In this document: positions 830 to 48,767 of the stretch, piece by piece | Position numbering within the stretch: the first letter of the stretch is position 1 | Layout: every line of letters starts with the position of its first letter | Origin: Dehalococcoidia bacterium | Lineage (GTDB): Bacteria > Chloroflexota > Dehalococcoidia > Lucifugimonadales > UBA3495 | NCBI GenBank assembly: GCA_963664725.1 | Contig: OY761558.1 | Coordinates: 3,075,361-3,139,360 of the forward strand | Length of the DNA: 64,000 nt | Direction of reading: 5' to 3' | Translations under genes and position numbers: made by a program | Notes under the pieces: generated by a model | Database searches by the model: none | What the model saw: the letters and a program-made list of their open reading frames with translations, nothing else | What the model was told of the DNA's origin: nothing

Positions 830-851
830 GTAATGCCTCGCGAGGCATTAC
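830..851. repeat. 22-bp perfect palindrome GTAATGCCTCG|CGAGGCATTAC upstream of the replication-relaxation-like gene
   Basis: Read directly from the sequence. The two 11-nt arms are exact reverse complements with no spacer. Confidence 0.9.
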
Positions 852-904
852 GAGCGAACAATTTCTCTTGGACAATGGAGTGTTGGGCCATTGTGACGGG
901 AGGA

Positions 905-3007
905 ATGAGAATGACAACAACTAACACCAACACGCCAATCCCGGAAGACGACGAGTTTTCCAGCGACGACCTCGAAAACGCCATCCGGCACTACGTGCAA
1001 ACCTACGCCGACTGGCGCGGCAGCCATAAGGCGATGGAGCGATTCGGCGTCTCGCGCCAGACCCTCTGGCGGTTCCTGGAACGGGGACACCTGGGCCGCG
1101 CCCTGCCCAAATCCGTCCTGGACAGCGTGGGCAATAGCGTACAGGCCATCGACGCGGCAACCTGGGCCGTCGTGGCCTCGGAGCGCATCAACGCCAATTT
1201 CAACCGTGCCGCCAGGAACCGGCGCCCGGTGGGTCCCGCCCTGCGCCGGGGCCAGGAGGACGCGCTGCTGCAACTGTGCGCCGCGCCGCTGACCACCGTG
1301 AGCGAACTGGCCCGTTTCAACCGGGAACCGCCCACGACCTTGCGTGGCAGGCTGGAAAGATTAACGGAACTGGGCCTGGCTGATTCGGTGTCCCACAGCC
1401 TGGCCGCCCTGGGACCAAAGCCCCAGCGCCGCTACTTTCCCACGACACAGGGCATCCACGCCGCCGCCGCTCTTGAGTCGGGCATCAGGAGTTTCCTGGC
1501 CGACCGGCCGGTGTCCCGCCAGTGGTTCCGGCTGCTCACCGAGCGCCTGGACGCCGTGGCCGTACTCTACCACGTGGCCGCCCTCATCGCCGACGCCGAC
1601 CCGGAGGGAAGCCCCGTCCGGGTGGACCACTACCGCCAGGGACCCTATGACCTGCTGGTTACGTTGTCTCAAGGCCGTTCCGTGGGCATCCTGCGCCAGG
1701 GAGCGACCCTGCCCTCATCCCACCTTCGCTACCGCCTGAGAACCATCGAGAACCTGCCCGCGAGCGAGAGGCCCACGGTTACCCTGGTGATCACCGGCTC
1801 CGACCAGGCCACCCGCCGGGCCGTCCGCACCCTGGGCCACCCGGTGGAGCACGAGAGCTTCTTCGTGGCCACCGAGGGGGAGCAACTGGCCGGGGACCAC
1901 CGGTTCACAGCCTGGCAGCAGTGCGGCCACGGGATGGGGGTGCAGGTGAAGATAGCCCCCCACCTCTCCCTGGAGAACTTCGTCGCCTCCATCGGCTGGC
2001 TGGTGGACAGAGACGCCAGGAACCGCCGTGACCGGACCCCGCCGGACAGGCGCCGGCCCCAACCGGACCCGTATTCCCTCTACCCCACTCACCTGCGGGC
2101 CGCCCTGCCCGACCCAACGGAGCAGGTCAATAGTTCCCTCGCCGTCCAGCTCACCCGCGCCGACAAGGAGGCCCTGGACCTGCTGGCCGCCTGGCCCCTG
2201 TGCACCACGGAGCAACTCGCGGGGCTGATGGGCGGCGTCACCCGCCGACGGGCCAACCAGGTGCTCCGGTCTCTCACAGACCGTTCCCTGGTCCACTCGG
2301 AGAGCCAGCGCCACGTCCTGGCCGACGAGGGGCTGCGCTACCTGGCCCGGAGGGACCGGGCCGCCGTGAGAATCGCCCTGGGCCGCTGGAGCGCCCGCAA
2401 GCGCCGCCGCAGCCGGGGCAGCGCCCCGGTCATAGCCGGCACCTCCCTGCGCAGCCTGGACTCCCAGCTGGCACACCAGGACGCCATCAACACCCTCGCC
2501 GCCGCCCTGAGCGCCGAGGCCGCCCGGTCCAAGGACCATCACCTGCTGGAGCTGCTGCCCACCTACCGTTCCAGCATCGGCTATCGCCACCAGGGCCAGG
2601 ACTACGTGATCCACCCGGACGCCACCTTGTGGATGTCATACCGGGGAGACTGGCGTCCCTATTTCCTGGAGTTCGAGCGCCGCGCCGTCACCCCCAGGCG
2701 GGTCCGCGAACGGCTGAAGAACTACCCCCGCTACCTCGCCAGCGGCTGGGCCGACCTGGACCACGCCGGGCAGCTGCCCCTGGTGCTGTTCGTGTTCGAG
2801 ACCCACGACGCCGAGGAGTCCTTCCTGCGGGCCGCCGGAAAGCACCGGCTGCCCATCTGCACTTCCAACCTGGAAATGATCGCCGACCTTGGCGTGTTGC
2901 GTGAGGTGTGGCGCTGGCCGCCGCCCAATGCCCCGGATCGACTGCCGCTGCACCGGCTGGGCGAGGGCTACAAAAATGTACCTTCCCGTTCCAGGCATTT
3001 CCTGTAG
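905..3007 (+). CDS. Replication-relaxation-like protein with multiple winged-helix modules
   Basis: ORF 833..3007. Its first ATG lies inside a 22-bp perfect palindrome (830-851), so the start is more likely ATG 905 or 911, after GGGAGG. It has repeated wHTH-like segments (e.g. LTRADKEALDLLAAWPLCTTEQLAGLMGGVTRRRANQVLRSLTDRSLV) and a C-terminal core HPDA...YFLEFERRA typical of replication-relaxation family proteins. Confidence 0.5.
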   Translation: MRMTTTNTNTPIPEDDEFSSDDLENAIRHYVQTYADWRGSHKAMERFGVSRQTLWRFLERGHLGRALPKSVLDSVGNSVQAIDAATWAVVASERINANFNRAARNRRPVGPALRRGQEDALLQLCAAPLTTVSELARFNREPPTTLRGRLERLTELGLADSVSHSLAALGPKPQRRYFPTTQGIHAAAALESGIRSFLADRPVSRQWFRLLTERLDAVAVLYHVAALIADADPEGSPVRVDHYRQGPYDLLVTLSQGRSVGILRQGATLPSSHLRYRLRTIENLPASERPTVTLVITGSDQATRRAVRTLGHPVEHESFFVATEGEQLAGDHRFTAWQQCGHGMGVQVKIAPHLSLENFVASIGWLVDRDARNRRDRTPPDRRRPQPDPYSLYPTHLRAALPDPTEQVNSSLAVQLTRADKEALDLLAAWPLCTTEQLAGLMGGVTRRRANQVLRSLTDRSLVHSESQRHVLADEGLRYLARRDRAAVRIALGRWSARKRRRSRGSAPVIAGTSLRSLDSQLAHQDAINTLAAALSAEAARSKDHHLLELLPTYRSSIGYRHQGQDYVIHPDATLWMSYRGDWRPYFLEFERRAVTPRRVRERLKNYPRYLASGWADLDHAGQLPLVLFVFETHDAEESFLRAAGKHRLPICTSNLEMIADLGVLREVWRWPPPNAPDRLPLHRLGEGYKNVPSRSRHFL

Positions 3008-3211
3008 GGGAGCTATGACCAAAGGTGATTTCCGGCGTACCAACCCTGTCAGACCCCCCAGGCCCGGAGCGCGTACATTTTGTTGCAGAAATCCGACCTT
3101 TTGGCAGAGGCAGACCGGCCCCGAGTCCGTGGGCGGAAGAACCGCTGACACGTATGACACATTAGGATTGACCCGTAAATGAGACGTAATGACACAACGG
3201 GAGGTGAGGAC

Positions 3212-3565
3212 ATGAGACTGCTGACCAAGGCGGAAGCCTGCCGGGAGTTGAGGTTGTCCCTGTCAACGCTGAACCGGCGCATCGCCGCCGGGGAGGTGGG
3301 GGTAAGAAGGGAGCCGCGAGGCAGGCGGCACCGGGTGTACGTGATGCTGGACGACGACCTGCCGGTTGCCGCCAAGGACGCCGACTCCGGCGAAACGACG
3401 CTGGTCGTGGCCCAGGAGCGGATACGTGGGATGGAGGAACAGGTGGCATTCCTCCAAGAGCAGCTTGACCTGGAGCAGCAACGCAATACCGAGCTGGTCA
3501 ACGAGTTGGAGGCCGTGACGGTACAGCGAAAGCGCTGCCGCTGGTGGCGGTTCTGGCAATCGTAA
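3212..3565 (+). CDS. Excisionase/MerR-type HTH DNA-binding protein (candidate recombination directionality factor) with a C-terminal coiled coil
   Basis: GGAGGTGA RBS before ATG 3212. N-terminus reads MRLLTKAEACRELRLSLSTLNRRIAAGE (Xis-like HTH). The C-terminal part is heptad-like (EEQVAFLQEQLDLEQQRNTELVNELE). Confidence 0.6.
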   Translation: MRLLTKAEACRELRLSLSTLNRRIAAGEVGVRREPRGRRHRVYVMLDDDLPVAAKDADSGETTLVVAQERIRGMEEQVAFLQEQLDLEQQRNTELVNELEAVTVQRKRCRWWRFWQS

Positions 3566-3711
3566 ACGGGGACGCGCCCCTTGCCGCCGAGTAGCGCTTT
3601 GGCAATCTCCAGGAGCAGCACTGTCCGATAGGAATGGAAGGAGCCAACCGGCGAAGATACTGACGTTTCCCGCTTGCGCATTGGGTATCCGTTGCGATAC
3701 CATAGTGCGGT

Positions 3712-4053
3712 ATGGGTCAAACTCACGATGGCGAGGGAGCGGCAATGGGCAGCAGTGAAGTACAGGCGGCATTTCCGGCCACGTCGGACGAAACGACGGC
3801 TGCCCTGAACCAAGCACTGGAAGCGGGCGACCTGGACCGCATCATGGGCATAATGGGCGAAATGACCCGCGCCCACCGGATGCGACGAGTTGCCCGGGAG
3901 ACGGGCTTGGGCGAGAAGAGTTTGTACAAGTCCATGCGGGCCGGAGCCAGCCCCGAGTTCAACACCGTGCTCCGGGTCCTGCGCTCCCTGGGTTTCCGCC
4001 TCCAGGTCCACCCCATTGCCGGTCAGACCGACATTTCCTCAGACCCTAGCTGA
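3712..4053 (+). CDS. HigA-family addiction-module antidote protein (TIGR02684-like)
   Basis: Motif block ARETGLGEKSLYKSMRAGASPEFNTVLRVLRSLGFRLQV is typical of the 'probable addiction module antidote protein' family. An alternative start is ATG 3745, after GAGGGAG. Confidence 0.7.
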   Translation: MGQTHDGEGAAMGSSEVQAAFPATSDETTAALNQALEAGDLDRIMGIMGEMTRAHRMRRVARETGLGEKSLYKSMRAGASPEFNTVLRVLRSLGFRLQVHPIAGQTDISSDPS

Positions 4054-4701: not shown

Positions 4702-4718
4702 TAGTGCAGGAGGACTAC

Positions 4719-6311
4719 ATGACAAGACAACTGCAACCCCTGACCCCGGCGGCCCTCTACGCCCGGGTGTCCAGCGACCGCCAGGACGTGGACCTCTCCG
4801 TGGCAGCCCAGCTACGTGCCCTGCGGGACTACGCCAAGAGCAACGGCTACTCCGTGGCCAGGGAGTACGTGGACGAGGCCGAGAGCGGCAGAATCGCCGA
4901 CCGGCCCCAGTTCCGCCAGATGATCGACGAGGGCGGCAAGGCCGCGGCTCCTTTCCAGGTGATTTTGGTATGGAAATTCAGCCGCTTCACCCGCAAGCGG
5001 GAACATGCCGTGGCCTTCAAGTCCATGCTGAGGCGCAAGGGCATCAGGGTGGTCTCCATCACCGAGCACGCCGACGACTCCCCCACCGGCAAGCTGATGG
5101 AGGCCATCATCGAGTCCGTGGACGAATTTTATAGCGAAAATTTAGCTCAAGAGGTCGTAAGAGGAATGCGGGAGGCCGCCTCTCGCGGCTATTTCCTTGC
5201 CTCCAAGGCCCCCTTCGGCTACACCCGCATCAAGGTCAGCGACGGGGTGAAGGACCGTCCCACCCTGGAGGTTGACCAGGCGGCCGCGCCCATCGTCAGG
5301 GAAATTTTCGAGAGTTCCCGCCGGGGCAACGGGCTGGCGGAAATCTGCAAGGAGCTGAACGGCCAGGGCATCACCAACCGGGGCAAACGCTGGCAGAAGA
5401 ACGTCATCCACTACCTGCTGACCAACGAGGCATACACGGGGACGGCCGTCTGGGGAGTCAAGAGCAAGGACGAGAAGGCGGGAGAGCCGGTGAGGGTGGA
5501 GAACGCCTGGCCCGCCCTGGTGTCGAGGGAGCTGTTTGACGAGGTTCAACAGGGACTCCACCAGCGGGCGCCCACGGTGCAGCGGCCGGGTCGAGTTGGC
5601 AGCCAGTACTTGCTGAGCGGTCTCCTCCGCTGTGGGGTGTGCGGCAAGCCCTACTCGGCCCAGGGGGCCAAGAGCGGCCAGTTCGCCTACTACGTCTGCG
5701 CCAGCCTGTTCCGCGAGGGAGCGGGGGCGTGCAGCAACGGGCGCTACCTGAACGCCACGAAAGTCGAGGACCTGGTGATCGAGAAGGTCAGGGAGCGGAT
5801 ACTCACCGAGGAGACCATCACCGAGTTGGTGACACTGGTGGCCGAGGAGATCGACAACCTGGCCGGGGAGGTCAACGGACGGCTGACGGCCATCAACAGC
5901 GAGCTATCCGACGTGGAGACGCGGTTGGAGAACCTCTACCAGGCCCTGGAGACGAAGCAACTGCCCATAGAGGTGATCTCTCCCCGTATCCTGTCCCTGA
6001 AGAGCCGCCAGGACCAGCTTGTGGCAGCGCGGGAGGGGGCCGAGGCCCAGTTGGAGCAGCGTCGGGCGGAGTTGCCCACCAGCAGGGAGGTCAAGGGGTA
6101 CGTGGCTGACTTCCGCGCACTCTTCCAGGAAGGGACGTTCCCGGAGCGGAAGGCGCTCATCCGCAACTTCGTGCAGGGCATCGAGATCGTGGAGGACGAG
6201 GCGGTTCTGACGTACACTATCCCCATGCCCCAAGACGGGGTGACGTCGGAATCGGCCTCGGTTCTTGATTTTGTCCAGTCCGGCCCACCATCATATAATC
6301 CCCACTTGTAA
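4719..6311 (+). CDS. Large serine recombinase (integrase)
   Basis: Resolvase catalytic N-terminus (LYARVSSDRQ...), a recombinase domain, a zinc ribbon (CGVCGKPY...YYVC) and a long coiled coil. AGGAGGA RBS precedes ATG 4719. Confidence 0.9.
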   Translation: MTRQLQPLTPAALYARVSSDRQDVDLSVAAQLRALRDYAKSNGYSVAREYVDEAESGRIADRPQFRQMIDEGGKAAAPFQVILVWKFSRFTRKREHAVAFKSMLRRKGIRVVSITEHADDSPTGKLMEAIIESVDEFYSENLAQEVVRGMREAASRGYFLASKAPFGYTRIKVSDGVKDRPTLEVDQAAAPIVREIFESSRRGNGLAEICKELNGQGITNRGKRWQKNVIHYLLTNEAYTGTAVWGVKSKDEKAGEPVRVENAWPALVSRELFDEVQQGLHQRAPTVQRPGRVGSQYLLSGLLRCGVCGKPYSAQGAKSGQFAYYVCASLFREGAGACSNGRYLNATKVEDLVIEKVRERILTEETITELVTLVAEEIDNLAGEVNGRLTAINSELSDVETRLENLYQALETKQLPIEVISPRILSLKSRQDQLVAAREGAEAQLEQRRAELPTSREVKGYVADFRALFQEGTFPERKALIRNFVQGIEIVEDEAVLTYTIPMPQDGVTSESASVLDFVQSGPPSYNPHL

Positions 6312-9711: not shown

Positions 9712-10776
9712 ATGGACGTGGGATTGATGATGATCTTCTCCAGCTACGGCTGGGAAGAGGGATCGGACGGCCAGATGTGGGAGGAGGAACTGCGCCTGGC
9801 GGAGATTGCCGCCGATGCGGGGTTCGACTGCCTGTGGTCTGCCGAGCACCACTTCAACGACTACTCCTTCGTGCCGGACAACCTGCAACTGATGACCCAC
9901 GTCGCCGCCAAGCACCCGGACATTGAAGTGGGCACGGCGGCGGTGATCCTGCCCTGGCATAACCCCCTGCGGGTGGCGGAGAACGCCGCCGTGCTGGACA
10001 TGCTGAGCGGCGGGCGGCTGCGGCTGGGATTCGGTCGGGGCCTGGCCCGGAGAGAGTTCGAGGCTTTCGGCGTCAGCATGGACGAGTCCCGCGACCGGTT
10101 TGACGAGGCGGCGCCCATGATCGTGGAGGCGTTGAAGACCGGGTACATCGAGGGCGACGGGCCCCACTATCCGCAGGCGCGGACGGAAATCCGGCCCCGT
10201 CCCCAGCACTCCTTTGATGGACGAATCTATGCCGTGGCCGCCAGTGACGAATCGGTGATGTCGGCGGCGCAACTGGGCGCGCACATCATCATGTTCGCCG
10301 ACCGGCCCTGGGAGATGCGCATGCCGGGCATTGAGCGGGGACGCGCGCTGCACCGGGAGTTTCACGGCACGGAACCGCCGGCGCTGATGATTACCGAGTT
10401 TGTCATCTGCGGCGAGGACCTGGCCCAGTGCGAGGAGGAGGCCCGCCAGTACCAGGGCAAGTTCGTGGAGAGCAACTTCCACCACTACGAGTTCCTGGGC
10501 GACCACTTTCGCGACGTGAAAGGCTACGGCGCTTACCAGCAGAAGGCGGAGATCGCCCGGGCCGCCGGCCTGGACGGCGCCGTGGAAGGGTTTATGAAGG
10601 CGGCAAGCTGGGGTACGCCGGACAAGATTCTGCGGGGTCTGGAGGACCGAAAAGAATTGTTGGGCGAGTTTGAGTTGAACGTGGCCTTCCGCTTCGGCGG
10701 CACACCCCCCGAGGTGGCGGAACGGGGCCTGAAGCTGTTCGCCAAAGAGGTGCTGCCGGTACTGAAGTCCTGGTAA
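9712..10776 (+). CDS. LLM-class (luciferase-like) flavin-dependent oxidoreductase
   Basis: AGFDCLWSAEHHF...LPWHNPLRVAENAAVLDMLSGGRLRLGFGRG is a canonical LLM signature. Confidence 0.9.
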   Translation: MDVGLMMIFSSYGWEEGSDGQMWEEELRLAEIAADAGFDCLWSAEHHFNDYSFVPDNLQLMTHVAAKHPDIEVGTAAVILPWHNPLRVAENAAVLDMLSGGRLRLGFGRGLARREFEAFGVSMDESRDRFDEAAPMIVEALKTGYIEGDGPHYPQARTEIRPRPQHSFDGRIYAVAASDESVMSAAQLGAHIIMFADRPWEMRMPGIERGRALHREFHGTEPPALMITEFVICGEDLAQCEEEARQYQGKFVESNFHHYEFLGDHFRDVKGYGAYQQKAEIARAAGLDGAVEGFMKAASWGTPDKILRGLEDRKELLGEFELNVAFRFGGTPPEVAERGLKLFAKEVLPVLKSW

Positions 10777-11972: not shown

Positions 11973-12075
11973 GCTACGCAGGCTTTCCATTGCCCATTCC
12001 CGCCGGCGCCTGTAGTATGGGGCCGTCGCCCGCGATTCCCCGGCAGCGGAAATCCAATTGCGGAAAGGGTGCTTT

Positions 12076-13248
12076 ATGACTGCCAGGCCCATTACCCCCG
12101 CCTCGGAACTCTCCCGCGATCAGCTGCTGTATAGAGCCGGAGAGCTTACGCCCGTGCTAAGAGAGCGGGCCCGCCTGACCGAAGAAATGCGCCGCGTACC
12201 GACCGAGTCCGTGCGGGACATGATTGATGCAGGTCTGCATCTCATTGGCGTGCCGAGAAAATTCGGCGGGCTGGATATCGATTACGGCGCCGGACACGAA
12301 GCGGGCGTTGAGCTGGCCAGGGGTTGCGCGTCAACCTCCTGGTGTTACTCCCTTTGGGTTGCCCACTCCTGGCTGGTGGGATTCTGGCCGCTGGAAGCCC
12401 AGGAGGACGTATTCGGGGATGGGCCGGATGCGCTTTGCTCCAGTTCACTCAGTCCCGGCAGATCAACCTGCACACCGGTGGAAGGAGGATACCGACTCAC
12501 GGGTCGGTGGGAATTTTCCAGTGGCTGCGACTCGGCCAACTGGCTAATGCTGGGCGTGGCGGGCATTGGCCAACGCAACTGGGTGCTGGTACCCAAGGGG
12601 GACTACCAGATAATAGACAACTGGTTTGTCTCTGGTCTGCGGGGCACGGGCAGCAAGAATATTGAAGTGGAAGACGCCTTCATTCCTGCCCACCGGGCGC
12701 TGGAGGTCACCACGGCCGGCGTTACTGACCTTAGCGCGTGGGAACTCCACGGGCAGGACCGTTACCGGGTACCCGTCCCCGTTTTGCTGGGCTGGGACCT
12801 GGTAGCGCCGATGATCGGCCTGGCCCGTGGCATGGCAGATGAGTTTGCCAGCAGACTCTCGGGCACGTCAGGGCCGGGCCGCACAGCCGATTCGGCCGCC
12901 ATCCATCTGCGTTTGTCCCAGGCCTGCGCCGAGGTGGACGCGGCGGAGGCCCTGATGGAGCGGGACGTGGCCGAAACGCTGCGGAAGGGTCGCGATGGAG
13001 AATCGTTCACTGTCATGGAGCGGGCCAAGTTCCGGCGTGACAAGGCATTTTGCACTCAGCTTGGTCTGCAGGCAGTCAACCGCCTGTTCGACCTGAGCGG
13101 GGGACATGCCCTGTTTGATTCCGAACCCCTCCAGCGGTTCCATAGGGATGCCCAGGCGGTGGCCCATCGTGACGGCCTGATAATGGACCTGGGCGGCCAA
13201 CAGTTCGGCAGGGTCATGCTGGGGCTGGAACCCGACGGGCCTATTTAG
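12076..13248 (+). CDS. Acyl-CoA dehydrogenase-fold flavin monooxygenase (type-2 ACAD / two-component oxygenase-like)
   Basis: The length and motifs (GLRGTGSKNIEVEDAFIPAHR, C-terminal RDAQAVAHRD) resemble ACAD-type-2 / DszC-HpaH-like oxygenases. Confidence 0.75.
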   Translation: MTARPITPASELSRDQLLYRAGELTPVLRERARLTEEMRRVPTESVRDMIDAGLHLIGVPRKFGGLDIDYGAGHEAGVELARGCASTSWCYSLWVAHSWLVGFWPLEAQEDVFGDGPDALCSSSLSPGRSTCTPVEGGYRLTGRWEFSSGCDSANWLMLGVAGIGQRNWVLVPKGDYQIIDNWFVSGLRGTGSKNIEVEDAFIPAHRALEVTTAGVTDLSAWELHGQDRYRVPVPVLLGWDLVAPMIGLARGMADEFASRLSGTSGPGRTADSAAIHLRLSQACAEVDAAEALMERDVAETLRKGRDGESFTVMERAKFRRDKAFCTQLGLQAVNRLFDLSGGHALFDSEPLQRFHRDAQAVAHRDGLIMDLGGQQFGRVMLGLEPDGPI

Positions 13249-19027: not shown

Positions 19028-20164
19028 ATGTCTAGACGCCTGTTCAAGGAACTGGAGCGTTCCTACGGCTTCGACGAAGTAGCTATTGTTCCCGGTGATG
19101 TGACCATCAATCCTGAATTGACATCCACCACAATGACCATTGGGGAATGCTCCTTTGACGCTCCCATGATGGCGTCTGCGATGGACGGCACGGTTTCGCC
19201 CAGGTTTGCCACCCTGATGGATGAGATGGGTGGTCTGGGGGTGCTCAACGGGGAAGGACTCTATTCACGTTACGAGGACCCTTATTCCATTTTGGAAGAA
19301 ATCACTTCCATGCCCCAGTCGGAGGTGACCCAATACCTTCAGCAGGTGTATGCCGAACCGATCAAGGACAACCTGATCGGGCAGCGGGTGGAGGAGATAA
19401 AGAGCGCAGGTTCGACCTGCGCGATTGCTTTTACCCCCCAGAACACCAAGCGGATGTCGCCGGTGGCGGTGGAAGCCGGGGCGGACTTAGTGGTAGTCCA
19501 ATCCACGGTAACTACGGCGCGTCACTATTCGCGAAGCTACCGGGGGCTGATCTTCGCGGAGTTGATCGAGTCGCTTAGCGTGCCAGTAGTGGTGGGCAAC
19601 TGTGTCACCTACGACGTGGCCATGGAGTTGATGGAAACCGGTGTGGACGGCATTCTGGTAGGCGTGGGTCCCGGCGCCGCCTGCACTACCCGGGAAGTCA
19701 CCGGGGTGGGCGTGCCGCAGGTAACCGCTACCCTGGAGTGTGCTGCGGCCAGGCAGGACTACTTTCACCGCACTGGCCGCTATGTCAACGTCATTACCGA
19801 CGGCGGCATTCGCACCGGCGGGGACTTCTGCAAGTCAATTGCCAGCGGGGCCGACGGCGTGATGGTGGGCACACCCTTTGCCCAGGCCGCCGAAGCGCCC
19901 GGCCGGGGTTACAACTGGGGCATGGCCAACGCCCACGCTGAGTTGCCTCGAGGCACCCGCATCAAGGTAGGAACCAAGGCGACGCTGAAGGAGATAATGT
20001 ACGGGCCCACTTCGGTCACCAACGGCACGCAGAATTTGGTAGGAGCATTGAAGGTGGCCATGGGAATGTGCGGGGCCTACACCATTCGGGACTTTCATCA
20101 GGCGGAGATGGTAGTTGCGCCATCTATCAAGACCGAAGGGAAGTTCTTCCAGTTGGGTGAATAG
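19028..20164 (+). CDS. guaB3: GuaB3-type IMP dehydrogenase-related protein
   Basis: The N-terminus [17 protein letters not shown]...[14 protein letters not shown] and the lack of a CBS insert are typical of the GuaB3 subgroup of the IMPDH/GMPR family. Confidence 0.8.
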
Positions 20165-20262
20165 CCCTTCTGCCTGTTACGCGGCAGCGAATTTTTGCCC
20201 AGCAAGAGGGGATTAATAACAGTCAGCAAATTTTCTAGCGAATCCCAGGGAGGTAAAGGGAA

Positions 20263-20805
20263 ATGGTTCTGGCAAACGGGACTATTCAGATACTGGACCC
20301 GCGCCCGGAGGGAGTGCCTGAAGAACGGGGCATAAGCGACGAGATTCCCAGCCTGGAAGGGAAAGTGGTAGGCCTGCTTGAGAACCGGAAATATCACGCA
20401 GATTCTTTTCTGCTGGAGTTGCAGCGGGTGCTGGAGGAAGAGTACAAAGCCAAGAAGGTGGTATACGCTTCCAAGTTCACTTTCAGCATGCCCTGTGCCG
20501 ACGAGACCATAGACAATTTAGTGGAGGAGTGTGACGCCGTTGTGCACGGCATAGCCGATTGAGGCTCCTGCACGGCGTGGGGTCTCCACGACACGGTAGT
20601 AACTGAATCTCGCGGGGTTCCGTCGGTCAGCGTTATAACCAGCGCATTCACCCGGGCGGCGCACGCCCGGGCCGCTTCCCTGGGAATGCCTGGGGTGCGA
20701 ATAGTGGTGCTGCCCAGCCCGCTGGCCTCCCGAAGCGTGCCGGAGGTACAGCAGCTGGCCCACGAGTACGCCGAGGAAATTGTCGGACTGCTTACCAAGG
20801 GCTAA
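20263..20805 (+). CDS. UGSC-type selenoprotein: 180 aa with Sec encoded by in-frame UGA at 20560-20562
   Basis: The track ORF 20263..20562 ends ...VVHGIAD at TGA. The same frame stays open for 80 more codons (GSCTAWGLHDTVVTESRGVPSVSVITSAF...EIVGLLTKG) to TAA 20803-20805. A SECIS-like hairpin starts 6 nt after the UGA. The motif U-GSC matches the name-giving motif of the 'UGSC family (seleno)protein', recalled from memory. Confidence 0.75.
20568..20599 (+). promoter_or_regulatory. Bacterial SECIS-like stem-loop downstream of the recoded UGA
   Basis: Lower stem CUGC/GUAG, then CG/CG. Apical stem CGUGG/CCACG (20576-20580 with 20586-20590). The apical loop GGUCU (20581-20585) begins with the 7th codon after UGA. 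As I recall it, the E. coli fdhF SECIS has the same loop sequence and spacing. Confidence 0.55.
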
Positions 20806-20838
20806 AATAGCGGCTGATGGCAGGTGTTTAATTGTTTT

Positions 20839-20873
20839 CGCCGGAGTCAATGGCTCCGGCGATTATATTGTTA
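20839..20873 (+). terminator. Terminator-like hairpin after the selenoprotein gene
   Basis: CGCCGGAG-TCAATGG-CTCCGGCG followed by a U-rich tail, ATTATATTGTTAT. Confidence 0.4.
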
Positions 20874-20905: not shown

Positions 20906-21598
20906 ATGCAAACTGCAATCGAATTTGAAGCCAGTTATGCCATGCTGACCGTGGCGCTGGAAGCTGGCGAAAGCATCAAGGCGGAACCGGGGGCAATGGT
21001 GGCCCAGGAAGGAGTGGAGATGAAGACCGGCTCCGCCGGCGGAGGAATATTCGGGGGAATCCGGCGAATGATGGGCGGAGAGTCCTTTTTCATTAATACC
21101 TTCACCGCCCAGCGCGGCGGGGGGCAGGTATGCCTTGCTCCCTCCACACCCGGTGACATAGGGTCCTTCACGTTGCCGCCGGGCCGAAATCTGTTCATTC
21201 AGGGCAGTTCCTTCCTGGCCTGCACCGACAGTGTACAGACAGATTCCCAGTTCCAGGGTTTCCGAGGCATGTTCAGCGGCGAGAGCCTCTTTTTTCTGCG
21301 GGCGTATTCAGAGCGGGGAGAAGGGACCGTATTCTACAACTCCTACGGAGCCATCAAGCGGCTGCCGGTGGAACCCGGCAAGGAACTGGTGGTAGACACC
21401 GGGCACCTGGTGGCATTCAGCGACGACGTTGAATATTCCATAGGAAAAGTGGGCGGCATCCGGTCGCTCATTGGCGGCGGTGAAGGCCTGGTAATGAAGT
21501 TCAAGGGCAACGGCCAGGTGTGGATACAAACGCGCAACCTGGCGTCCCTGGTGGAGAAGATTGTGCCGTTCCTGCCCACACCGAATCGGGGGCAATAA
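20906..21598 (+). CDS. AIM24/TIGR00266 (DUF124) family protein
   Basis: AMLTVALEAGESIKAEPGAMVAQEGVEMKT...GGESFFINTFTA...GEGTVFYNSYGAI is characteristic of the AIM24 family. Confidence 0.8.
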   Translation: MQTAIEFEASYAMLTVALEAGESIKAEPGAMVAQEGVEMKTGSAGGGIFGGIRRMMGGESFFINTFTAQRGGGQVCLAPSTPGDIGSFTLPPGRNLFIQGSSFLACTDSVQTDSQFQGFRGMFSGESLFFLRAYSERGEGTVFYNSYGAIKRLPVEPGKELVVDTGHLVAFSDDVEYSIGKVGGIRSLIGGGEGLVMKFKGNGQVWIQTRNLASLVEKIVPFLPTPNRGQ

Positions 21599-21600
21599 GA

Positions 21601-22668
21601 ATGAACCCGTTGACTATTCAGTCTCGGCGTGTGGAAGTCCCTGCGGACTTTGATGCCGTACAAGACTATTATGAACAGCAGGGGTGGACTGACGGGTTGC
21701 CGGTGGTTCCGGCGACGGAAGACCTGGTTCGGAAAATGCTACTGCCCTACGGCCAGGACCCGTCTACCAGTCTGGGAGTGGTGCAGCCCCGGAATGCCGA
21801 GGTTACGCTGGAGAAGGTTGCCATTAATGCCGTAATGGCAGGGTGCAAGCCCGAACATTTTCCCGTGGTGGTGGCGGCCGTGAAGGCAGCTATGCAACCC
21901 GACTTCAACATAGCCGGCGTGCAGGCCACGACCGGTGGCGCGGCGCCGGCAGTCATAGTCAACGGCCCTGTCGCGCAGGAACTGGGGATTAACGGCGATA
22001 CCGGGTGCTTTGGTCCGGGCTACCGGGCCAACGCTTCCATCGGCAGGGCATTGCGCCTGTTTATCCGCAACGTGGCCGGCCTGGTGCCCGGGGAGATGGA
22101 CAAGGCGACGCTGGCGCTGCCGGCGCGGTACACCTTCTGTTTCGCGGAAAACGAGGCCCGCAGTCCGTGGGAGCCTTGGCACGTGGAGCTGGGCCTGGAT
22201 CCGTCTGCCAGCATGGTTACTGTGATGGGTGTGCGGGGGATGTACGTCATCATGGAGAGCACCTCGCCGACGGGCATCCAGGTTCTGCGGACGCTGGTGG
22301 ATTCCATCCGCACCACCGGCTTTTCCAACTACTATCAGACTGGCACGGGGGCGCAGATGGCGTTGGTGCTGTGCCCCGAACATGCAGAGGAAATCCACGC
22401 TTCAGGGCTTTCGAAGCAGGACGTGAGGGAGTACGTGTTCCAGAATGCCCGGATGCCTCTGCGCAGGCTGAAGGGAATAGCCCATTACGGCAACCGCAAT
22501 TGGCCCAAGTGGATTGATGAGTCTGATCCCGATGCGATGGTCCCGATATTAGGTTCGGCGGACGACCTGCTGGTGATGGTGGCGGGCGGCGATGGCCGGC
22601 ACTCGGCGTGGCTGGCTGGATGGGGAGTAACCCGGAGGACCACGCAGGTGATAGAAGAGCCACAGTGA
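21601..22668 (+). CDS. Conserved-looking protein of unknown function (355 aa)
   Basis: ATG 21601 lies 2 nt after the AIM24 stop. The amino-acid composition is balanced and the motif QQGWTDGLPVVPAT lies near the N-terminus. I cannot recognise a family. The track start at 21520 would overlap the AIM24 gene and is rejected. Confidence 0.65.
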   Translation: MNPLTIQSRRVEVPADFDAVQDYYEQQGWTDGLPVVPATEDLVRKMLLPYGQDPSTSLGVVQPRNAEVTLEKVAINAVMAGCKPEHFPVVVAAVKAAMQPDFNIAGVQATTGGAAPAVIVNGPVAQELGINGDTGCFGPGYRANASIGRALRLFIRNVAGLVPGEMDKATLALPARYTFCFAENEARSPWEPWHVELGLDPSASMVTVMGVRGMYVIMESTSPTGIQVLRTLVDSIRTTGFSNYYQTGTGAQMALVLCPEHAEEIHASGLSKQDVREYVFQNARMPLRRLKGIAHYGNRNWPKWIDESDPDAMVPILGSADDLLVMVAGGDGRHSAWLAGWGVTRRTTQVIEEPQ

Positions 22669-38607: not shown

Positions 38608-38687
38608 CCTGCTCAGACCTCCGCCTCTCCAAAGAATGATGCGAGATGCCGACCGACCCTCCACTCAAATCCAGGAGGTACAAGGGA

Positions 38688-39968
38688 ATGTTTATCGGGT
38701 ACTTCACCGAACGGCCCTATCAGGACCAGCGCTCTGGGTACTTTGGCGCGACCGGCAAGCCCATAATGGACCTGACGGTCAGCAACGAAATTTACGACGC
38801 CAAGCTGGGCGCCGAACTGTACAACCGCTATCTCGACGAAAAGATGTACGCCGAGGAAATGGGCTTCGACGGGCTGATGCTCAACGAGCATCACGGCACG
38901 CCCTTCTGTATGGGAGGCGCCATGAACGTGGAGGCCTCCATTCTGGCCCGTATGACCAACCGTGCCAAGATAGTCCTGCTGGGAAACATCCTGCCCATCT
39001 GGGATGACCCCCTTTGGCTGGTGGAACAGCTTTCCATGATCGACATGATTTCCCGAGGGCGGTTAGTATCCGGCTGGGTTCGGGGCACAGGCAGGGAAAG
39101 CGTGGCCCACAATTCGCCGCCGCCCTACAACTGGGAGCGGTTCCAGGAGGCCCACGAGTTTGTCGTCAAGGCCTGGACCACGCCCGGTCCCTTCCGCTGG
39201 GAGGGCAAGCATTTCCAGTACCGGCATGTTAACCCGTGGGTGCGGCCTTACCAGGAACCTCATCCGCCCATCTGGCTCCCCGGGGTGGTAAGCCGGGACT
39301 CGTTGATGTGGGCCGCCGAAAAGCGCATCCCCTACATTATGCTGGCCACGGAGATGGAACCGACCAAGCGAGCTTTTCAGCTATATCACGACACGGCCGC
39401 AGAACACGGCTATGAGTCTGGCCCACAAAACATCGGCTACCTCTGGAAGGTTCACGTTGACGAGACCGAGGAACTGGCGGAGGCAACGGCCCGCAAGTAT
39501 GTGCAAGGTCCCAGCAACCCATTCCTGGCCGGTAACGAGGGGACGGTCAACCCAGCGCTGGTGAACTTGCCGGGACTGACTTCCCGCACCCGTGTCCTTC
39601 CCACCCAGTCGGTGGCCACGGCGGCTCGGGGTGGCGGCGGCGGCGTAGCCGGAGTGTTGGGCCGAGCTTATGAACAGCAGATCGAAGACTACACCATAAT
39701 CGCCGGAACTCCGGATTCGGTGATTCCCAAGATTCGCCACGTCCTTGAGTACATCCGCCCTGGAAGTATCTTCTTCTGGGACGGCGACGGTGCGATGACT
39801 CACGACGACGCCATGCGCAGCCTGCGCCTTATGGGCCAGGAAGTTATACCCGCGGTGAAGGAAATCGCCAAGGAGCTGGAGCTTCCAGGTCCGTTCGAGG
39901 TGGATCCGGCCACGGGCAAAGACTTGACCCAAGAGGCTGAGGCGGCCAGTCCCACGGCGGATGATTAG
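38688..39968 (+). CDS. LLM-class flavin-dependent oxidoreductase
   Basis: GFDGLMLNEHHGTPF...LGNILPIWDDPLWLVEQLSMIDMISRGRLVSGWVRGTG. AGGAGG RBS precedes ATG 38688. Confidence 0.85.
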   Translation: MFIGYFTERPYQDQRSGYFGATGKPIMDLTVSNEIYDAKLGAELYNRYLDEKMYAEEMGFDGLMLNEHHGTPFCMGGAMNVEASILARMTNRAKIVLLGNILPIWDDPLWLVEQLSMIDMISRGRLVSGWVRGTGRESVAHNSPPPYNWERFQEAHEFVVKAWTTPGPFRWEGKHFQYRHVNPWVRPYQEPHPPIWLPGVVSRDSLMWAAEKRIPYIMLATEMEPTKRAFQLYHDTAAEHGYESGPQNIGYLWKVHVDETEELAEATARKYVQGPSNPFLAGNEGTVNPALVNLPGLTSRTRVLPTQSVATAARGGGGGVAGVLGRAYEQQIEDYTIIAGTPDSVIPKIRHVLEYIRPGSIFFWDGDGAMTHDDAMRSLRLMGQEVIPAVKEIAKELELPGPFEVDPATGKDLTQEAEAASPTADD

Positions 39969-40001: not shown

Positions 40002-40030
40002 GGGCGGGTCTTGTACCCGCCCTTTGCAGG
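40002..40030 (+). terminator. Intrinsic terminator after the LLM gene
   Basis: GGGCGGGT-CTTGT-ACCCGCCC followed by TTTGCAGGTTT. Confidence 0.55.
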
Positions 40031-40085
40031 TTTCCATTATTTTCAATTAGTAACAGGGTTCCCGTTCACCGGATTTCTTAAGCAG

Positions 40086-41801
40086 ATGATCTCAGAACCG
40101 ACAACTGATGTGGCGGTCATCGGCGGCGGGCCCGCTGGCAGCGCCGCCGCCACAATGCTGGCGCGGCAGGGCTTGAAGGTAATGCTGCTGGAGCGGGAGC
40201 GCTTCCCCCGCGACCACGTCGGCGAATCGCTGCTACCGGCCAGCATTCCCATCCTGGAAGAATTGGGCGTTATGCCAGCGGTAGAAGCTCAGGGATTCGT
40301 CAAGAAGCTGGGCGCCACCATGGTATGGGGCCGCGACAGGGAGCCCTGGAGCTGGTTCTTCGGCGAGACCAATCGGCGGTATCCGCATTCCTACCAGGTC
40401 TGGCGGCCCACCTTCGACCACCTGCTGCTAGACAATGCCGCTGCCAACGGAGTTGACGTGCGCCAAGGCTGGCAGGCTACAGAAGTGTTGCTTGATCCCC
40501 AAGTCCGTTATTCCGGCGTAAGCAGTAATCCAGAACCCACCGACTTTCTACAGACTTCGAACGAAAGTTACTTGCACACCAGCGTCCGCTGTATGGACGA
40601 CGCAGGCCGGGAACGTCACATCCCATCTCGCTTTGTGGTGGACGCCAGTGGACAGAACGGGCTTTTGGGTCGTCAGCTTGGTCTGCGCCGGTGGGACGAA
40701 TCCTTCCGTAACCTTGCGGTCTATGCCTACTATGAAGGCGCCGAGCGATTGCCTCCCCCCGCTGACACCAACATCTTCATCGAATCTTACGCCCACGGGT
40801 GGCTGTGGACCATTCCCCTGCACACAGGTTGGGCCAGCGTGGGGGCTGTGGTAGACCAGCGTGTGGGCGAAGAAAGGGTTCAATCCATGGGCCTGGAACG
40901 CTTTCTTGACGAGCAGCTTTTTCAAGCCCCACACACGGCGGAAATGCTGCGAAACGCTAACAGGGTTTCGGGACCGTCCATCGTCAAGGACTGGTCTTAC
41001 GCCTGCGAGAAAATAGCTGGAAGTAGCTACGTATTGGCCGGGGATGCCGCCTGCTTCATTGACCCCCTATTTTCGTCGGGAGTGCACCTGGCCCTGATGT
41101 CCGGCGTGCTGGCCGCGGCGTACGTCACCACTGCCCTACGGGATCCGGCGATAGCTCCGGCCGCCGCCCAGGTCTACCAGGAACTGTATATGAAGGAATA
41201 CCACCACTTCCGGGAGATGGTGCGGCTCTTCTATTCCAGCAATCGTACGGTGGATTCCTACTTCTGGGAGGCGCGGCGCATCCTGGAAGAAGATGATGGA
41301 GAAGCGTCCGGCCTGTCTCCCCGGACGTCCTTCATACAGGCGGTGGCGGGGCAGCCACCACAGGGCTACGAGCGGATGGTGTTGGAGAGGGGCGCTGCGC
41401 CCACCCATTTCGCCGACAGTGTACGGGCAGTGGAGGATGAGCGGGTCAGGCGCCATGTACTGATCGAGGAATACCTCAAAGCCGGGAATGGGCAACCTCC
41501 TGCGATATTAGCCGCTGTGCCCAGGCTGCGGCCTGGAGTACGGGTGGTTCGGAAGCCGGTTGCCGGCGACGGCGCCTTTGAATGGGGCTATGTGCTCATC
41601 ACCGATGGCCATCCGGAGGGTCTGCCCTGTAGCGATCTGGTGGCCCGCCTGGCCACTATGCTGAATGGCAGGACAGCCGTCTCATCAATCCTCGACACTT
41701 TGGCAGCAGAAGTGGACCCATCTCTGCAGCAGCAACTCCTTGGCAGCGTGATATCCACGCTGCAGATTCTCTACGTGGACGGAACGATAGCTGAGTTGTA
41801 A
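40086..41801 (+). CDS. Flavin-dependent halogenase-family protein with a C-terminal PqqD-like extension
   Basis: FAD motif DVAVIGGGPAGSAAA. Halogenase signatures are W-x-W-x-I-P (HGWLWTIP) and F-x2-P-x2-S-x-G (FIDPLFSSG). The last ~95 aa (PRLRPGVRVV...MLNGRTAVSSILDTLAAEV...ILYVDGTIAEL) follow the PqqD/RRE pattern. Confidence 0.7.
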   Translation: MISEPTTDVAVIGGGPAGSAAATMLARQGLKVMLLERERFPRDHVGESLLPASIPILEELGVMPAVEAQGFVKKLGATMVWGRDREPWSWFFGETNRRYPHSYQVWRPTFDHLLLDNAAANGVDVRQGWQATEVLLDPQVRYSGVSSNPEPTDFLQTSNESYLHTSVRCMDDAGRERHIPSRFVVDASGQNGLLGRQLGLRRWDESFRNLAVYAYYEGAERLPPPADTNIFIESYAHGWLWTIPLHTGWASVGAVVDQRVGEERVQSMGLERFLDEQLFQAPHTAEMLRNANRVSGPSIVKDWSYACEKIAGSSYVLAGDAACFIDPLFSSGVHLALMSGVLAAAYVTTALRDPAIAPAAAQVYQELYMKEYHHFREMVRLFYSSNRTVDSYFWEARRILEEDDGEASGLSPRTSFIQAVAGQPPQGYERMVLERGAAPTHFADSVRAVEDERVRRHVLIEEYLKAGNGQPPAILAAVPRLRPGVRVVRKPVAGDGAFEWGYVLITDGHPEGLPCSDLVARLATMLNGRTAVSSILDTLAAEVDPSLQQQLLGSVISTLQILYVDGTIAEL

Positions 41802-41892: not shown

Positions 41893-43491
41893 ATGAACTT
41901 TGTTCTGCCTGAACGTATGAAATTCGGAATCTTCCTGGGGCCTTTCCACAGGGTTGGCGAGAATCCTACGCTGGCTATGGATCGGGACATGGAGTTGATC
42001 CAATGGCTTGACTACCTGGGATACGACGAAGCGTGGATTGGAGAGCACCACAGCGCCGGCTGGGAAACGATATCTTCGCCCGAACTGTTCATTGCCGCCG
42101 CCGCCGAGCGCACCAAGCACATAAAGCTGGGCACCGGAGTTATAAGCCTGCCTTACCACCATCCCTTTATGGTGGCCAACCGCATGGTCCAGCTGGACCA
42201 CATGACCCACGGACGGGTAATGCTGGGGGTTGGCCCGGGCGCGCTGCCGGGCGATGCCTACATGTTGGGCATTGACCCCACCACTCAGCGGGAAAAGATG
42301 GACGAGGCTATGGGCATCATCCTGCGCCTCTTCACCGAGGACGAGCCAATTACCTACAAGAGCGACTGGTTCGAGCTTCGGGAAGCCATGCTGCAACTGA
42401 AGCCTTACCAACGGCCCTACATGCCGTTGTCTGTGGCATCGGTGCAGTCCCCTGCGGGGGTTGCCATGGCCGGCAAATATGGAGCGTCGGTACTGACAAT
42501 CACCGTACCCCGCGACCCTTCTGCCGGTCCCTCCAACCTCAAGGCTCTTTGGGAGATTGCGGAGACCTCTGCCGCCGAGCATGGGCAGACGGTGGACCGG
42601 CATGAGTGGCGGCTGGCCGTCCCCTGCCACCTTGCCGAAGACCGTGAACAGGCCTTGCAGGAAGTGAAGATGGGGGCGGGCAGATACTTACGGGAATACT
42701 CGGAAGGCACCAATGGCCGGAAGGCCGCCTTCGACGGGCCCCTGGAAGATGTTGCGGAGTTCATGCGGGACAACGGTTCCTGGATTATCGGCACCCCCGA
42801 TGACTGTATCGAAAGCCTGAACCGGCTGGCAGAACAAAGCGGCGGTTACGGCGGTTTCCTGGTCCAAACTATTGACTGGGCGCCTCGCGAGAAGATGCTG
42901 CACAGCTTCGAGTTGATGGCCCGCTATGTGATGCCACACTTCCAGGGCTCGGTTCGGAGCGTCGCCGCGTCCAACCGCTGGGCCGCGGAACGGCAGGAAC
43001 TCCTGGTTGGCGGGCGGGTGCGGGCCATAGACCGGGCCCACCAGGTCTACGCAGATCGGCAAGGTTCGGGCTCTCAGCAGAATGGTTCCAGCCATAACGG
43101 ATCGGGCCAGGAGAGCGCCGCCGAGGCTAAAGAAGAAGTTCCAAGACCGCCGGTCCCTGGCAATAATGGGGTTAGCACGGACCAGGTCCGCCGAGCGGCC
43201 GGGATTACGCCTGAAGGAGAGTTCGAGCTTCCCATCCTTGAAGTATTGTTCAACCTGGGCGGCAGTGGCTCCACCGACGACGTGTTGAAAGGAGTTGATG
43301 CCCTGATTGGCGGCTATTTCAAGGAAGGGGACTTCCATTCCTCCGAAAACGGCGGTGTAACCTGGCAGCAATCTGCGAAAGCAGCCCGACAGACATTGGT
43401 GACCTTTGGACTGGTAAAGGTAAACAGTGACGGCGACGCCTGGGAGTTGACCGAAGAAGGCAAGCGGGAGGCAGCCAAGGCCAAGATCTAA
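41893..43491 (+). CDS. LLM-class flavin-dependent oxidoreductase fused to a C-terminal Mrr_N-like winged-helix domain
   Basis: LLM core (GYDEAWIGEHHSAGWE...GRVMLGVGPG), a G/S/N-rich linker, then ELPILEVLFNLGGSGSTDDVLKGV...VTWQQSAKAARQTLVTFGLVKVNSDGDAWELTEEGK. Confidence 0.8.
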   Translation: MNFVLPERMKFGIFLGPFHRVGENPTLAMDRDMELIQWLDYLGYDEAWIGEHHSAGWETISSPELFIAAAAERTKHIKLGTGVISLPYHHPFMVANRMVQLDHMTHGRVMLGVGPGALPGDAYMLGIDPTTQREKMDEAMGIILRLFTEDEPITYKSDWFELREAMLQLKPYQRPYMPLSVASVQSPAGVAMAGKYGASVLTITVPRDPSAGPSNLKALWEIAETSAAEHGQTVDRHEWRLAVPCHLAEDREQALQEVKMGAGRYLREYSEGTNGRKAAFDGPLEDVAEFMRDNGSWIIGTPDDCIESLNRLAEQSGGYGGFLVQTIDWAPREKMLHSFELMARYVMPHFQGSVRSVAASNRWAAERQELLVGGRVRAIDRAHQVYADRQGSGSQQNGSSHNGSGQESAAEAKEEVPRPPVPGNNGVSTDQVRRAAGITPEGEFELPILEVLFNLGGSGSTDDVLKGVDALIGGYFKEGDFHSSENGGVTWQQSAKAARQTLVTFGLVKVNSDGDAWELTEEGKREAAKAKI

Positions 43492-43597: not shown

Positions 43598-44554
43598 TTA
43601 CAATCCCTGTCCCACCGTGGCAATGAGGTTCAGGTTTCGTTCTATGGAGGCCTGTGCGTTGCCGCCGGCGGTCAGCGGGTGGGCCAGGACTTCGGTGGCT
43701 CCCCAGTCGAACAATTCCCGAAGGCGACCGGCCACCGTCTCCTCGTCACCCATCAGCACCACATCATCTATCATGCCATCGCTCCACGCTCCCTCCCGCG
43801 CTTCGGGGTGGCCGGACGCGGCGAACATCTCCTGGTAAAAAGGGGAGCGGGGGTAATTGGCAAGCTGGGCCCGAGCCGCTTCCCGCACTTCGTCCGGGTT
43901 GTCGTGAACGCACACCGGGGCGTGGGCCACCAGGGGAGGCGTCTCCCGACCGGCTCTCGTCGCACCCCGCTGCATCTCCGGTAGGGCCACGTCGCGCAGG
44001 TATTGGCCGGGGCACACCCAGCTTATGGCGCCGTCGGCCACCTCGCCGCACAGGCGGAAGGAGCGGCGGCGCAGGGCCGATGCCATTACCGGCACGTCTG
44101 GAGATGTCGGCCCTGGCAGGGAGGCGTGGCCGTGGTACTGGGAGCCATCATAGTCCACCTGGCCCTCCCACAGCAGGGCTTTAACCAGTTCTATGTACTC
44201 CCGCAGGTTGGTCAGCGGCGCTTCGTGCTCAATTCCGAACATGGGCTCGATGCTGACCTTGTGGCTGGGTCCCAGGCCCAGCCGGAACCGGCCCGGGGCC
44301 AACTGGGCTACAACCTGGGTCTGGGCCACGGACACGATGGGGTGGCGTGGGTATGTGGGTATGATGCTGGTGCCCAGCAGGATGCGGTCGGTGGTGGCCG
44401 CTGCTGCCGCGAAGGTTGTAAGGGCGTCTGGCCCCGCCCCGCCGGAAGTCAACCACGCCGCTTGTATGCCCCGGGCCTCCAGGTCCTGGATGCGGGCCAC
44501 CACGGTGGGAACGTCTCCCCCCATGGCCGCCACGCCTATTCGCTTTTCTGCCAT
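43598..44554 (-). CDS. LLM-class oxidoreductase, probably F420-dependent
   Basis: GIQAAWLTSGG...LLGTSIIPTYPRHPIVSVAQTQVVAQLAPGRFRLGLGPSH resembles the F420-dependent LLM subfamilies. Confidence 0.8.
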   Translation of the reverse strand: MAEKRIGVAAMGGDVPTVVARIQDLEARGIQAAWLTSGGAGPDALTTFAAAAATTDRILLGTSIIPTYPRHPIVSVAQTQVVAQLAPGRFRLGLGPSHKVSIEPMFGIEHEAPLTNLREYIELVKALLWEGQVDYDGSQYHGHASLPGPTSPDVPVMASALRRRSFRLCGEVADGAISWVCPGQYLRDVALPEMQRGATRAGRETPPLVAHAPVCVHDNPDEVREAARAQLANYPRSPFYQEMFAASGHPEAREGAWSDGMIDDVVLMGDEETVAGRLRELFDWGATEVLAHPLTAGGNAQASIERNLNLIATVGQGL

Positions 44555-48701: not shown

Positions 48702-48767
48702 AAAGGAACCTCCGTGAAATTGGGCATTGGGGGGCAAACGCACTTGCCCCCCCTTTGGGCTATGGGT

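Follow-up and report, generated by a model that had tools for sequence, protein, structure and literature searches.

The window analysed here, a 64,000-nt stretch of the Dehalococcoidia bacterium contig OY761558.1, contains at positions 20263–20805 (+ strand) what we regard with high confidence as one complete gene, encoding a 180-residue selenoprotein of the UGSC family with selenocysteine (Sec) at residue 100, specified by an in-frame UGA. Direct translation from ATG 20263 gave 99 codons ending in ...VVHGIAD, followed by TGA at 20560–20562 within the motif D-U-G-S-C and, in the same frame, by 80 further sense codons up to TAA at 20803–20805; coordinates and translations given in a preliminary description of this DNA were thus exact. 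A Shine–Dalgarno-like GGAGG, read from the sequence, is located at 20249–20253 (+ strand), 9 nt 5′ of the start codon. The second half has no sense open reading frame (ORF) in the program-made ORF list, where it is covered by two antisense ORFs only (20394–20798 and 20518–20850). The UGA-spanning peptide reads ...HGIAD-U-GSCTAWGLHDTVVTESR and corresponds to a tryptic peptide of about 46 residues. The gene is a correct, unannotated member of a known family; what is new beyond that family are a family-wide core of the selenocysteine insertion sequence (SECIS), the linkage to a partner gene, a correction of the predicted fold and a lead towards the GrdB/PrdB proteins.

Membership in the UGSC family was evident from profile searches in which U was read as C. 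The window protein scored 140 bits against NF041046 ('UGSC family (seleno)protein'; cut-off 125), covering profile positions 2–147 of 147, and 170.4 bits against PF24696 (cut-off 25), covering positions 1–171 of 172. The UGA corresponds to NF041046 position 69, and the two halves matched on either side of it, the N-terminal half alone at positions 2–68 and the C-terminal half alone at positions 70–147 with 72 bits. In its full-length profile match, its size, its U-G-S-C column and the occurrence of a Sec form beside cysteine (Cys)-form homologs, the window gene is like the rest of the family, which is abundant in aquatic metagenomes, and differs from it in nothing essential. Proteins containing UGSC have been listed as selenoproteins without assigned function since 2007–2008 (PMC1976440, PMC2398784; Zhang & Gladyshev), and the family was still uncharacterised in a 2026 review (PMC13188914), so that the earlier remark on its missing function continues to hold. 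UGSC nevertheless ranks among the most abundant selenoprotein families of the environment.

For analysis of the UGA codon, one genome per species was scanned, yielding 80 related Dehalococcoidia/SAR202 loci of 67–97% identity and, together with the window, a clade set of 81 genes. TGA was present in 81/81 clade genes and was followed by GSCT[ATS]WGLHD in all 80 related genomes, with 79–86 sense codons after the UGA at every related locus. Past the SECIS region, the variability of the downstream half by codon position was 0.122, 0.068 and 0.385, and codon differences relative to the window amounted to 2262 synonymous and 883 nonsynonymous changes. The N-terminal half, with 1701 synonymous and 1249 nonsynonymous differences, is under weaker constraint than the downstream half. 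The 80 downstream codons therefore carry both a coding signal and conservation, on which the proposal of a split gene had been made to depend.

When the last 80 residues of the window protein served as the query of an exhaustive, profile-free homolog search, 337 relatives were returned, many of them contiguous proteins of 170–215 amino acids that aligned from about residue 95–115. In 60 contiguous homologs the site aligned with the UGA was occupied by CGSC (54 proteins) or CGAC (6 proteins), showing the full-length homologs with Cys in the residue-100 column that had been anticipated. Since TGA ends 7 of 24 other family-matched genes of the window as an ordinary stop, the codon is not reassigned genome-wide. 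Together, the profile matches flanking position 69, the UGA in 80/80 relatives and the Cys in contiguous homologs bear out the assignment as a UGSC-type selenoprotein.

Gene callers truncate the gene, as had been predicted: the best 120 database proteins, originating from Chloroflexota, Dehalococcoidia and SAR202 metagenome-assembled genomes, including sponge metagenomes, all end at the UGA codon, 115 of them with 99 amino acids and the rest with 102–106. The exact 99-residue window product had no identical entry in the identity index. Because the public records examined all truncate at the UGA, selenoproteome surveys of SAR202/Dehalococcoidia will undercount UGSC, and this affects an abundant marine and sponge-associated lineage.

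Immediately downstream of the UGA, an apical hairpin extends from 20574 to 20592 (+ strand), with the stem CGUGG (20576–20580)/CCACG (20586–20590), the loop GGUCU (20581–20585) and an extra G–C pair (20574/20592) past a G·A mismatch. The loop starts with codon +7, 18 nt past the UGA, and the stem starts at 14–16 nt. Bacterial SECIS searches of the bSECISearch type expect the apical loop roughly 16–37 nt 3′ of the UGA, and the window hairpin fits this spacing for a bacterial SelB-type SECIS. Codons +5 to +10 (GCG TGG GGT CTC CAC GAC, 20575–20592) showed zero synonymous variation in the 81 distinct clade genes, compared with 1–1.9 bits of entropy at the flanking four-fold degenerate codons. The preliminary description had drawn a longer, bipartite stem-loop (20568–20599, + strand), which is the minimum-free-energy fold of 20555–20615; a 60-nt fold starting at the UGA gave a different structure. 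Its apical part stands, being fixed at synonymous sites in Sec forms only. Its lower stem (20568–20573/20594–20599) was not supported: it is broken in most relatives by ACG to ACA, and pairs past the 7-bp stem form in only 29–34 of 113 diverse Sec forms.

To extend the comparison beyond the clade, soil, freshwater and ocean contigs were scanned with the degenerate pattern D-[U/C]-G-S-C-x-x-W-x-[LIVFM]-H-D, yielding at least 120 stretches; pattern scans of viral contigs gave no match. Among the matches listed (loci L090–L209), the variable codon was TGA in 118 and TGC in 3, i.e. there were about 40 Sec forms for each Cys form. From the listed stretches, 113 distinct Sec forms were analysed for codon usage and pairing. 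All five core pairs of CGUGG/CCACG were present in 113/113, where two of the five were forced by the TGG, CAY and GA of the pattern itself and the other three, like the codon choices tabulated, were free of it. The sixth pair was found in 106/113 and the seventh in 97/113. The loop contained GU in 113/113 Sec forms, at loop positions 2–3 (RGUNU) in 107. Sec forms of the family mostly carry Ser (TCG) at +5, in contrast to Ala (GCG) in the SAR202/Dehalococcoidia clade, and because of this Ala codon the sixth pair, U–A in most Sec forms, is a G·A mismatch in the clade.

Codon choice within the element deviated strongly from that elsewhere in the same genes. Ser at +7 was encoded by AGT in 93/93 Sec forms, versus 0/111 for Ser +2 and 14/72 for Ser +11 to +19 (in total 14/183 outside +7). 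Ser at +5 was TCG in 105/106 cases, versus 33/111 at Ser +2; Gly at +7 was GGT in 12/13, versus 17/223 for the Gly residues at +1 and +18 taken together; and the third base of codon +8 was C in 112/113. The GAT preceding the UGA, invariant in the SAR202 clade, was considered as a further part of the signal and dropped, because family-wide it is not fixed (59 GAT, 54 GAC). The core, UGA-N14-GUCGUGG-RGUNU-CCACGAC, with GGCGUGG as its first part in the clade, holds family-wide and offers a simple way to recover further members. Judged on these nucleotide patterns, the hairpin at 20574–20592 is a family-wide, UGA-linked RNA element with the hallmarks of a SelB-type SECIS, its support coming from constraint at synonymous sites and not from covariation.

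The likeness to the SECIS of E. coli fdhF, which the preliminary description had pointed out, was checked on E. coli K-12. As in the window gene, the fdhF hairpin lies within the coding sequence, close 3′ of the UGA, and GGTCT is found at the identical offset of 21 from the T of TGA (18 nt after the UGA), confirming both loop and spacing as described there. The loop G-U, conserved over the whole UGSC family, is likewise shared with fdhF. The two elements differ in stem sequence and in how the stem is interrupted, by a bulged U on the 5′ side in fdhF and by a G·A mismatch or a bulged A on the 3′ side in the UGSC element; nothing conserved in the UGSC element corresponds to the long lower stem of fdhF. 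The label 'fdhF-like' thus fits the apical loop and stem, but neither the lower stem nor the outcome of a covariance model built from the family, which did not match fdhF. In analogy to E. coli fdhF, the hairpin would be the apical portion of a bacterial SECIS, to which SelB binds, and SelB together with Sec-tRNA(Sec) would insert selenocysteine at the UGA.

Several results weigh against this interpretation. In stability the hairpin did not stand out from shuffled sequences (z = −0.45; 54 of 200 shuffles folded equally well), for which reason thermodynamics alone is uninformative either way; it is the conservation of the hairpin that exceeds chance by far. RNAalifold returned the same hairpin; however, 0/6 predicted pairs had a compensatory double change, the only changes being six one-sided ones from G–C to G·U. 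Part of the stem, UGG/CA, is set by the conserved Trp and His codons. Rfam gave no match at the gathering threshold, nor at E ≤ 10. The covariance model, R1, built solely from family sequences without the GGUCU loop, found the window element as its sole significant match in the window (20560–20604; 42.3 bits, E = 1e-9; next best E = 0.69), yet Cys forms received scores close to those of Sec forms, and fdhF was missed. R1 is consequently not a Sec-specific test: a check of this kind, which had been suggested earlier, located the element but did not separate Sec from Cys forms. Among roughly 34 larger ORFs scanned in the window, none was selA, selB or selD, and ARAGORN found no tRNA gene, and hence no tRNA-Sec, in the 64 kb.

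The missing Sec machinery within the window and the hairpin without compensatory covariation would both suit a different decoding, in which a near-cognate tRNA reads the UGA as Cys or Trp and the hairpin merely stimulates read-through or pauses the ribosome. We consider this improbable. The position and size of the hairpin and the GU of its loop match a SelB-dependent SECIS, and GGUCU with its offset is that of fdhF; the gene belongs to a recognised selenoprotein family whose UGA forms are far commoner than its Cys forms, at 118 to 3 among the matches listed and 255 to 21 in the Global Ocean Sampling data (PMC2398784). For sponge symbionts of several phyla, moreover, most bins are reported to contain SelA and SelB orthologous groups (PMC5649159), which makes the use of Sec in this lineage plausible.

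The nucleotide invariance after the UGA might have an origin other than a SECIS, be it codon bias, an antisense gene, or a hairpin serving mRNA stability or regulation. Trp, His and Asp are kept for protein reasons and supply part of the complementarity, antisense ORFs are present, and the stem is kept in some Cys forms (L146, L081 and L213b). Comparison with Cys forms, for which the control set comprised only 7 genes, argues against such an origin and makes it a very improbable one. The stem was intact and the loop at the same time carried GU at positions 2–3 in 107/113 Sec forms versus 0/7 Cys forms (Fisher's exact test, 3e-8, a value that treats related sequences as independent). In Cys forms with the same SWSVHD peptide, Ser +7 was encoded by AGC in 4/4 instances, as opposed to AGT in 93/93 Sec forms. 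At the level of individual genes, the codons were TCG TGG AGC GTG in L168, TCC TGG AGC GTC in L210, TCA TGG AGC GTG in L212 and TCG TGG AGC GTT in L213b, as well as GGA CTC CAT in L081 and GGC GTT CAC in L084; for identical peptides, Cys forms thus use AGC and not AGT, GTG/GTT and not GTC, and TCC/TCA and not TCG. The same amino acids elsewhere in Sec genes use many codons, and the constraint spans phylogenetically distant and compositionally different lineages. The contrasts between Sec and Cys codons reveal a nucleotide constraint that goes beyond the needs of the protein and is tied to UGA-containing genes.

That the UGA is a true stop, leaving a truncated gene, a pseudogene or two small genes, is effectively refuted: although all gene callers annotate a product of about 99 residues and no separate start codon for the second half lies close to the UGA (which we count on the side of a stop), TGA and the downstream frame persist in 80/80 genomes, at identities as low as 67%, and variation is strongly biased to the third codon position. 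The downstream half alone reaches 72 bits on UGSC profile positions 70–147 and can be aligned with the C-terminal half of contiguous proteins.

For structure prediction, the closest contiguous Cys homolog, P0126 (41% identical to the window protein), was used as a stand-in. Its AlphaFold (AF2) model (predicted local distance difference test (pLDDT) score 88.5, predicted template modelling score 0.81) showed a five-stranded (βα)5 topology with CGSC at the N-terminus of helix 3. Foldseek comparison of this model with the PDB retrieved generic flavodoxin-like folds (lumazine synthase, CheY, FMN reductase) at template modelling (TM) scores of 0.5 or less, and no thioredoxin fold. In the literature, a 'likely Trx-like fold' had been guessed for UGSC (PMC2398784); this is not supported by the P0126 model and the Foldseek result, which was flavodoxin-like only, and the fold of UGSC is predicted to be flavodoxin-like and not thioredoxin-like. 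With the thioredoxin-fold selenoproteins (thioredoxin-, peroxiredoxin- and glutaredoxin-like), UGSC shares a UxxC motif at a helix N-terminus, suggesting thiol/selenol redox chemistry, but it differs from them in its predicted (βα)5 flavodoxin-like sandwich. Sequence and profile searches of the PDB with UGSC returned chance-level matches only.

A lead to a known group of selenoproteins was obtained from recurrent sub-threshold profile matches to their Sec-bearing region. TIGR01917 (GrdB) was matched by 20 of 34 UGSC proteins, with a best E-value of 2.6e-5; other Grd matches among the 34 were GrdF (12), TIGR01918 (11) and GrdH (8), while unrelated families appeared once each. Two UGSC proteins scored 14.6 and 12.4 bits on TIGR01917, whose cut-off is 602. 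The first Cys of P0126 and that of P0187 both map to about TIGR01917 position 347 (two cases, both weak matches), and the Sec of GrdB lies, as we presume, near residue 350. With GrdB, GrdF, GrdH and PrdB (TIGR01917, TIGR01918, TIGR04483, PF07355), the selenoproteins B of glycine/sarcosine/betaine reductase and of D-proline reductase, UGSC shares the UxxC motif and, putatively, a second, larger subunit; it differs from GrdB in being much smaller and in scoring far under the cut-off. From these sequence matches, UGSC is a probable remote homolog of the Sec-bearing domain of GrdB/PrdB, and not a member of that family.

The putative larger subunit just mentioned is the product of a gene for 355 amino acids at 21601–22668 (+ strand). 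In the program-made ORF list it begins with GTG at 21520; translation likely starts at ATG 21601, immediately behind the stop codon of the preceding AIM24 gene. No Pfam or NCBIfam match was obtained for this partner even at E ≤ 10, and its homologs, numbering at least 7,967, are all named only 'hypothetical protein'. It is 37–39% identical to the C-terminal roughly 340 residues, i.e. the C-terminal domain, of fusion proteins of 541–569 amino acids that carry UGSC at the N-terminus (E = 3e-71 and 2e-78). A 'UGSC/Unknown_1 fusion' was noted in 2008 (PMC2398784), and the UGSC–partner fusion appears to be the same. About a quarter of the listed metagenome Sec forms are such fusions, with roughly 440 codons after the UGA.

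The pairing of the two genes was found to be consistent across lineages. Of the 80 SAR202 loci, 72 have the partner downstream of UGSC. All independent Cys-form contexts that were read, among them those of Porticoccaceae and Frankia, have it as the gene immediately after UGSC, and the two genes often overlap by 4 bp. At 95 assessable metagenome loci it was separate and downstream in 47, fused into the same ORF after the UGA in approximately 31, nearby in 11 and absent in 6; adjacent or fused arrangements thus account for about 89/95 (about 94%). The partner is an obligate neighbour or fusion partner of UGSC. The preliminary description had correctly given this 'unknown protein' the same orientation as UGSC; the protein is no bystander but the conserved partner of the family.

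The structure model of the partner had a pLDDT of 82, and its best Foldseek match was class I fumarate hydratase, with E about 6e-4 and a TM score of 0.3 or less; sequence and profile searches of the PDB gave chance-level matches only. Residues invariant in distant members are Gly, Pro, Thr, Arg, Glu and Trp, located in the motifs IGRA, AEN and SPW. A three-Cys Fe–S site in the partner was considered and dropped, given that only C82 is common and is replaced by Ala in one subfamily. In a UGSC subfamily that is Cys-only (L082, L085, L086, L087) and carries the motif N-C-G-S-C ... W-T-I-R-D, the partner belongs to a subfamily with Ala for the otherwise common Cys of NAVMAGC, suggesting co-variation of the two proteins.

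Two further arrangements concern NifU. Locus L213 (719–2304 and 3001–3444), on one contig, contains a Sec-form UGSC with its partner and, beside a NifU gene, a second, Cys-form UGSC paralogue, and in P0176 and P0364 a NifU (PF01106) domain precedes UGSC in the same chain. This association hints at a link to Fe–S cluster handling in one UGSC subfamily.

Partner pairing and fusion, the flavodoxin-like prediction and the similarity to GrdB/PrdB lead to the testable hypothesis of a small Sec redox subunit acting with a catalytic subunit. UGSC would be a flavodoxin-like α/β domain, as modelled, that presents U-G-S-C at the N-terminus of helix 3, and would serve as a small redox subunit cycling between selenol/thiol and selenenyl-sulfide at U100/C103. 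Working with the 355-residue partner as a two-subunit enzyme, it would probably convert a small organic substrate in a reductive or thiol-dependent reaction, by analogy with the Sec region of GrdB/PrdB. We tentatively propose that UGSC and its partner may form an unrecognised two-subunit selenoenzyme, sometimes present as one chain, which would be a distant relative of the reductive-cleavage enzymes GrdB/PrdB with a different substrate-binding subunit and widespread in SAR202 and in bacteria of soil and freshwater.

A number of findings speak against this proposal, whose functional part is what we infer. No solved structure closely resembles UGSC or the partner. The window protein itself gave no match to the GrdB model at E < 1, and there was no match to Pfam GRDB. 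The partner lacks an invariant Cys and does not resemble GrdE/PrdA, setting it apart from the pyruvoyl proproteins of that name, and neither grdA, grdC nor prdC was seen in the UGSC neighbourhoods read. The genes flanking the module (n = 115) were heterogeneous with no dominant family, the counts being 6 for NMT1-type binding proteins and 4 each for major facilitator superfamily transporters, amidohydrolase_2 and Pyr_redox_2.

The remaining neighbours on the same strand agree, by profile matches, with what had been described, namely guaB3 upstream and AIM24 followed by an unannotated gene downstream. The upstream gene (19028–20164, + strand) encodes a GuaB3-family protein related to inosine monophosphate dehydrogenase (TIGR01304, 428 bits; cut-off 342); GuaB3 precedes UGSC in 75/80 SAR202 loci and is non-adjacent in the other lineages read, i.e. 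it is a neighbour specific to the SAR202 clade. The AIM24/TIGR00266 gene (20906–21598, + strand; PF01987, 213 bits; TIGR00266, 198 bits) is situated between UGSC and the partner. Since it takes this position in only 21/80 related loci, it is probably not part of the UGSC module and looks like a clade-specific insertion into a two-gene module. Its presence before the partner in some SAR202/Dehalococcoidia members sets this clade apart from the rest of the UGSC family. A terminator-like hairpin at about 20842–20862 lies immediately 5′ of the AIM24 gene.

Elsewhere in the window, a second candidate Sec gene at 48312–49196 (− strand), with TGA at 48770 between 141 and 151 in-frame codons, was evaluated and interpreted as a pair of adjacent genes for small membrane proteins. 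A GC-rich hairpin of 9 bp (GGGGGGCAA/TTGCCCCCC) 24 nt downstream of this TGA was judged intergenic, and the candidate was rejected; the second gene starts with MTSDPTG, and no Cys/Sec-type motif is present. Two ORFs, at 833–3007 (+ strand, 724 amino acids) and 3049–4011 (− strand, 320 amino acids), had no NCBIfam match at E ≤ 1e-5. Mobile-element genes are represented by a large serine recombinase (CcrB/XisF-like; 4704–6311, + strand) and an IS240/IS6-type DDE transposase (46479–47618, − strand). The window also carries several luciferase-like (LLM) flavin monooxygenases, an HsaA-like oxygenase and a flavin-dependent halogenase or monooxygenase (9712–10776, 12058–13248, 38646–39968, 40011–41801, 41893–43491 and 43598–44554), an inventory of a kind typical of SAR202 genomes.

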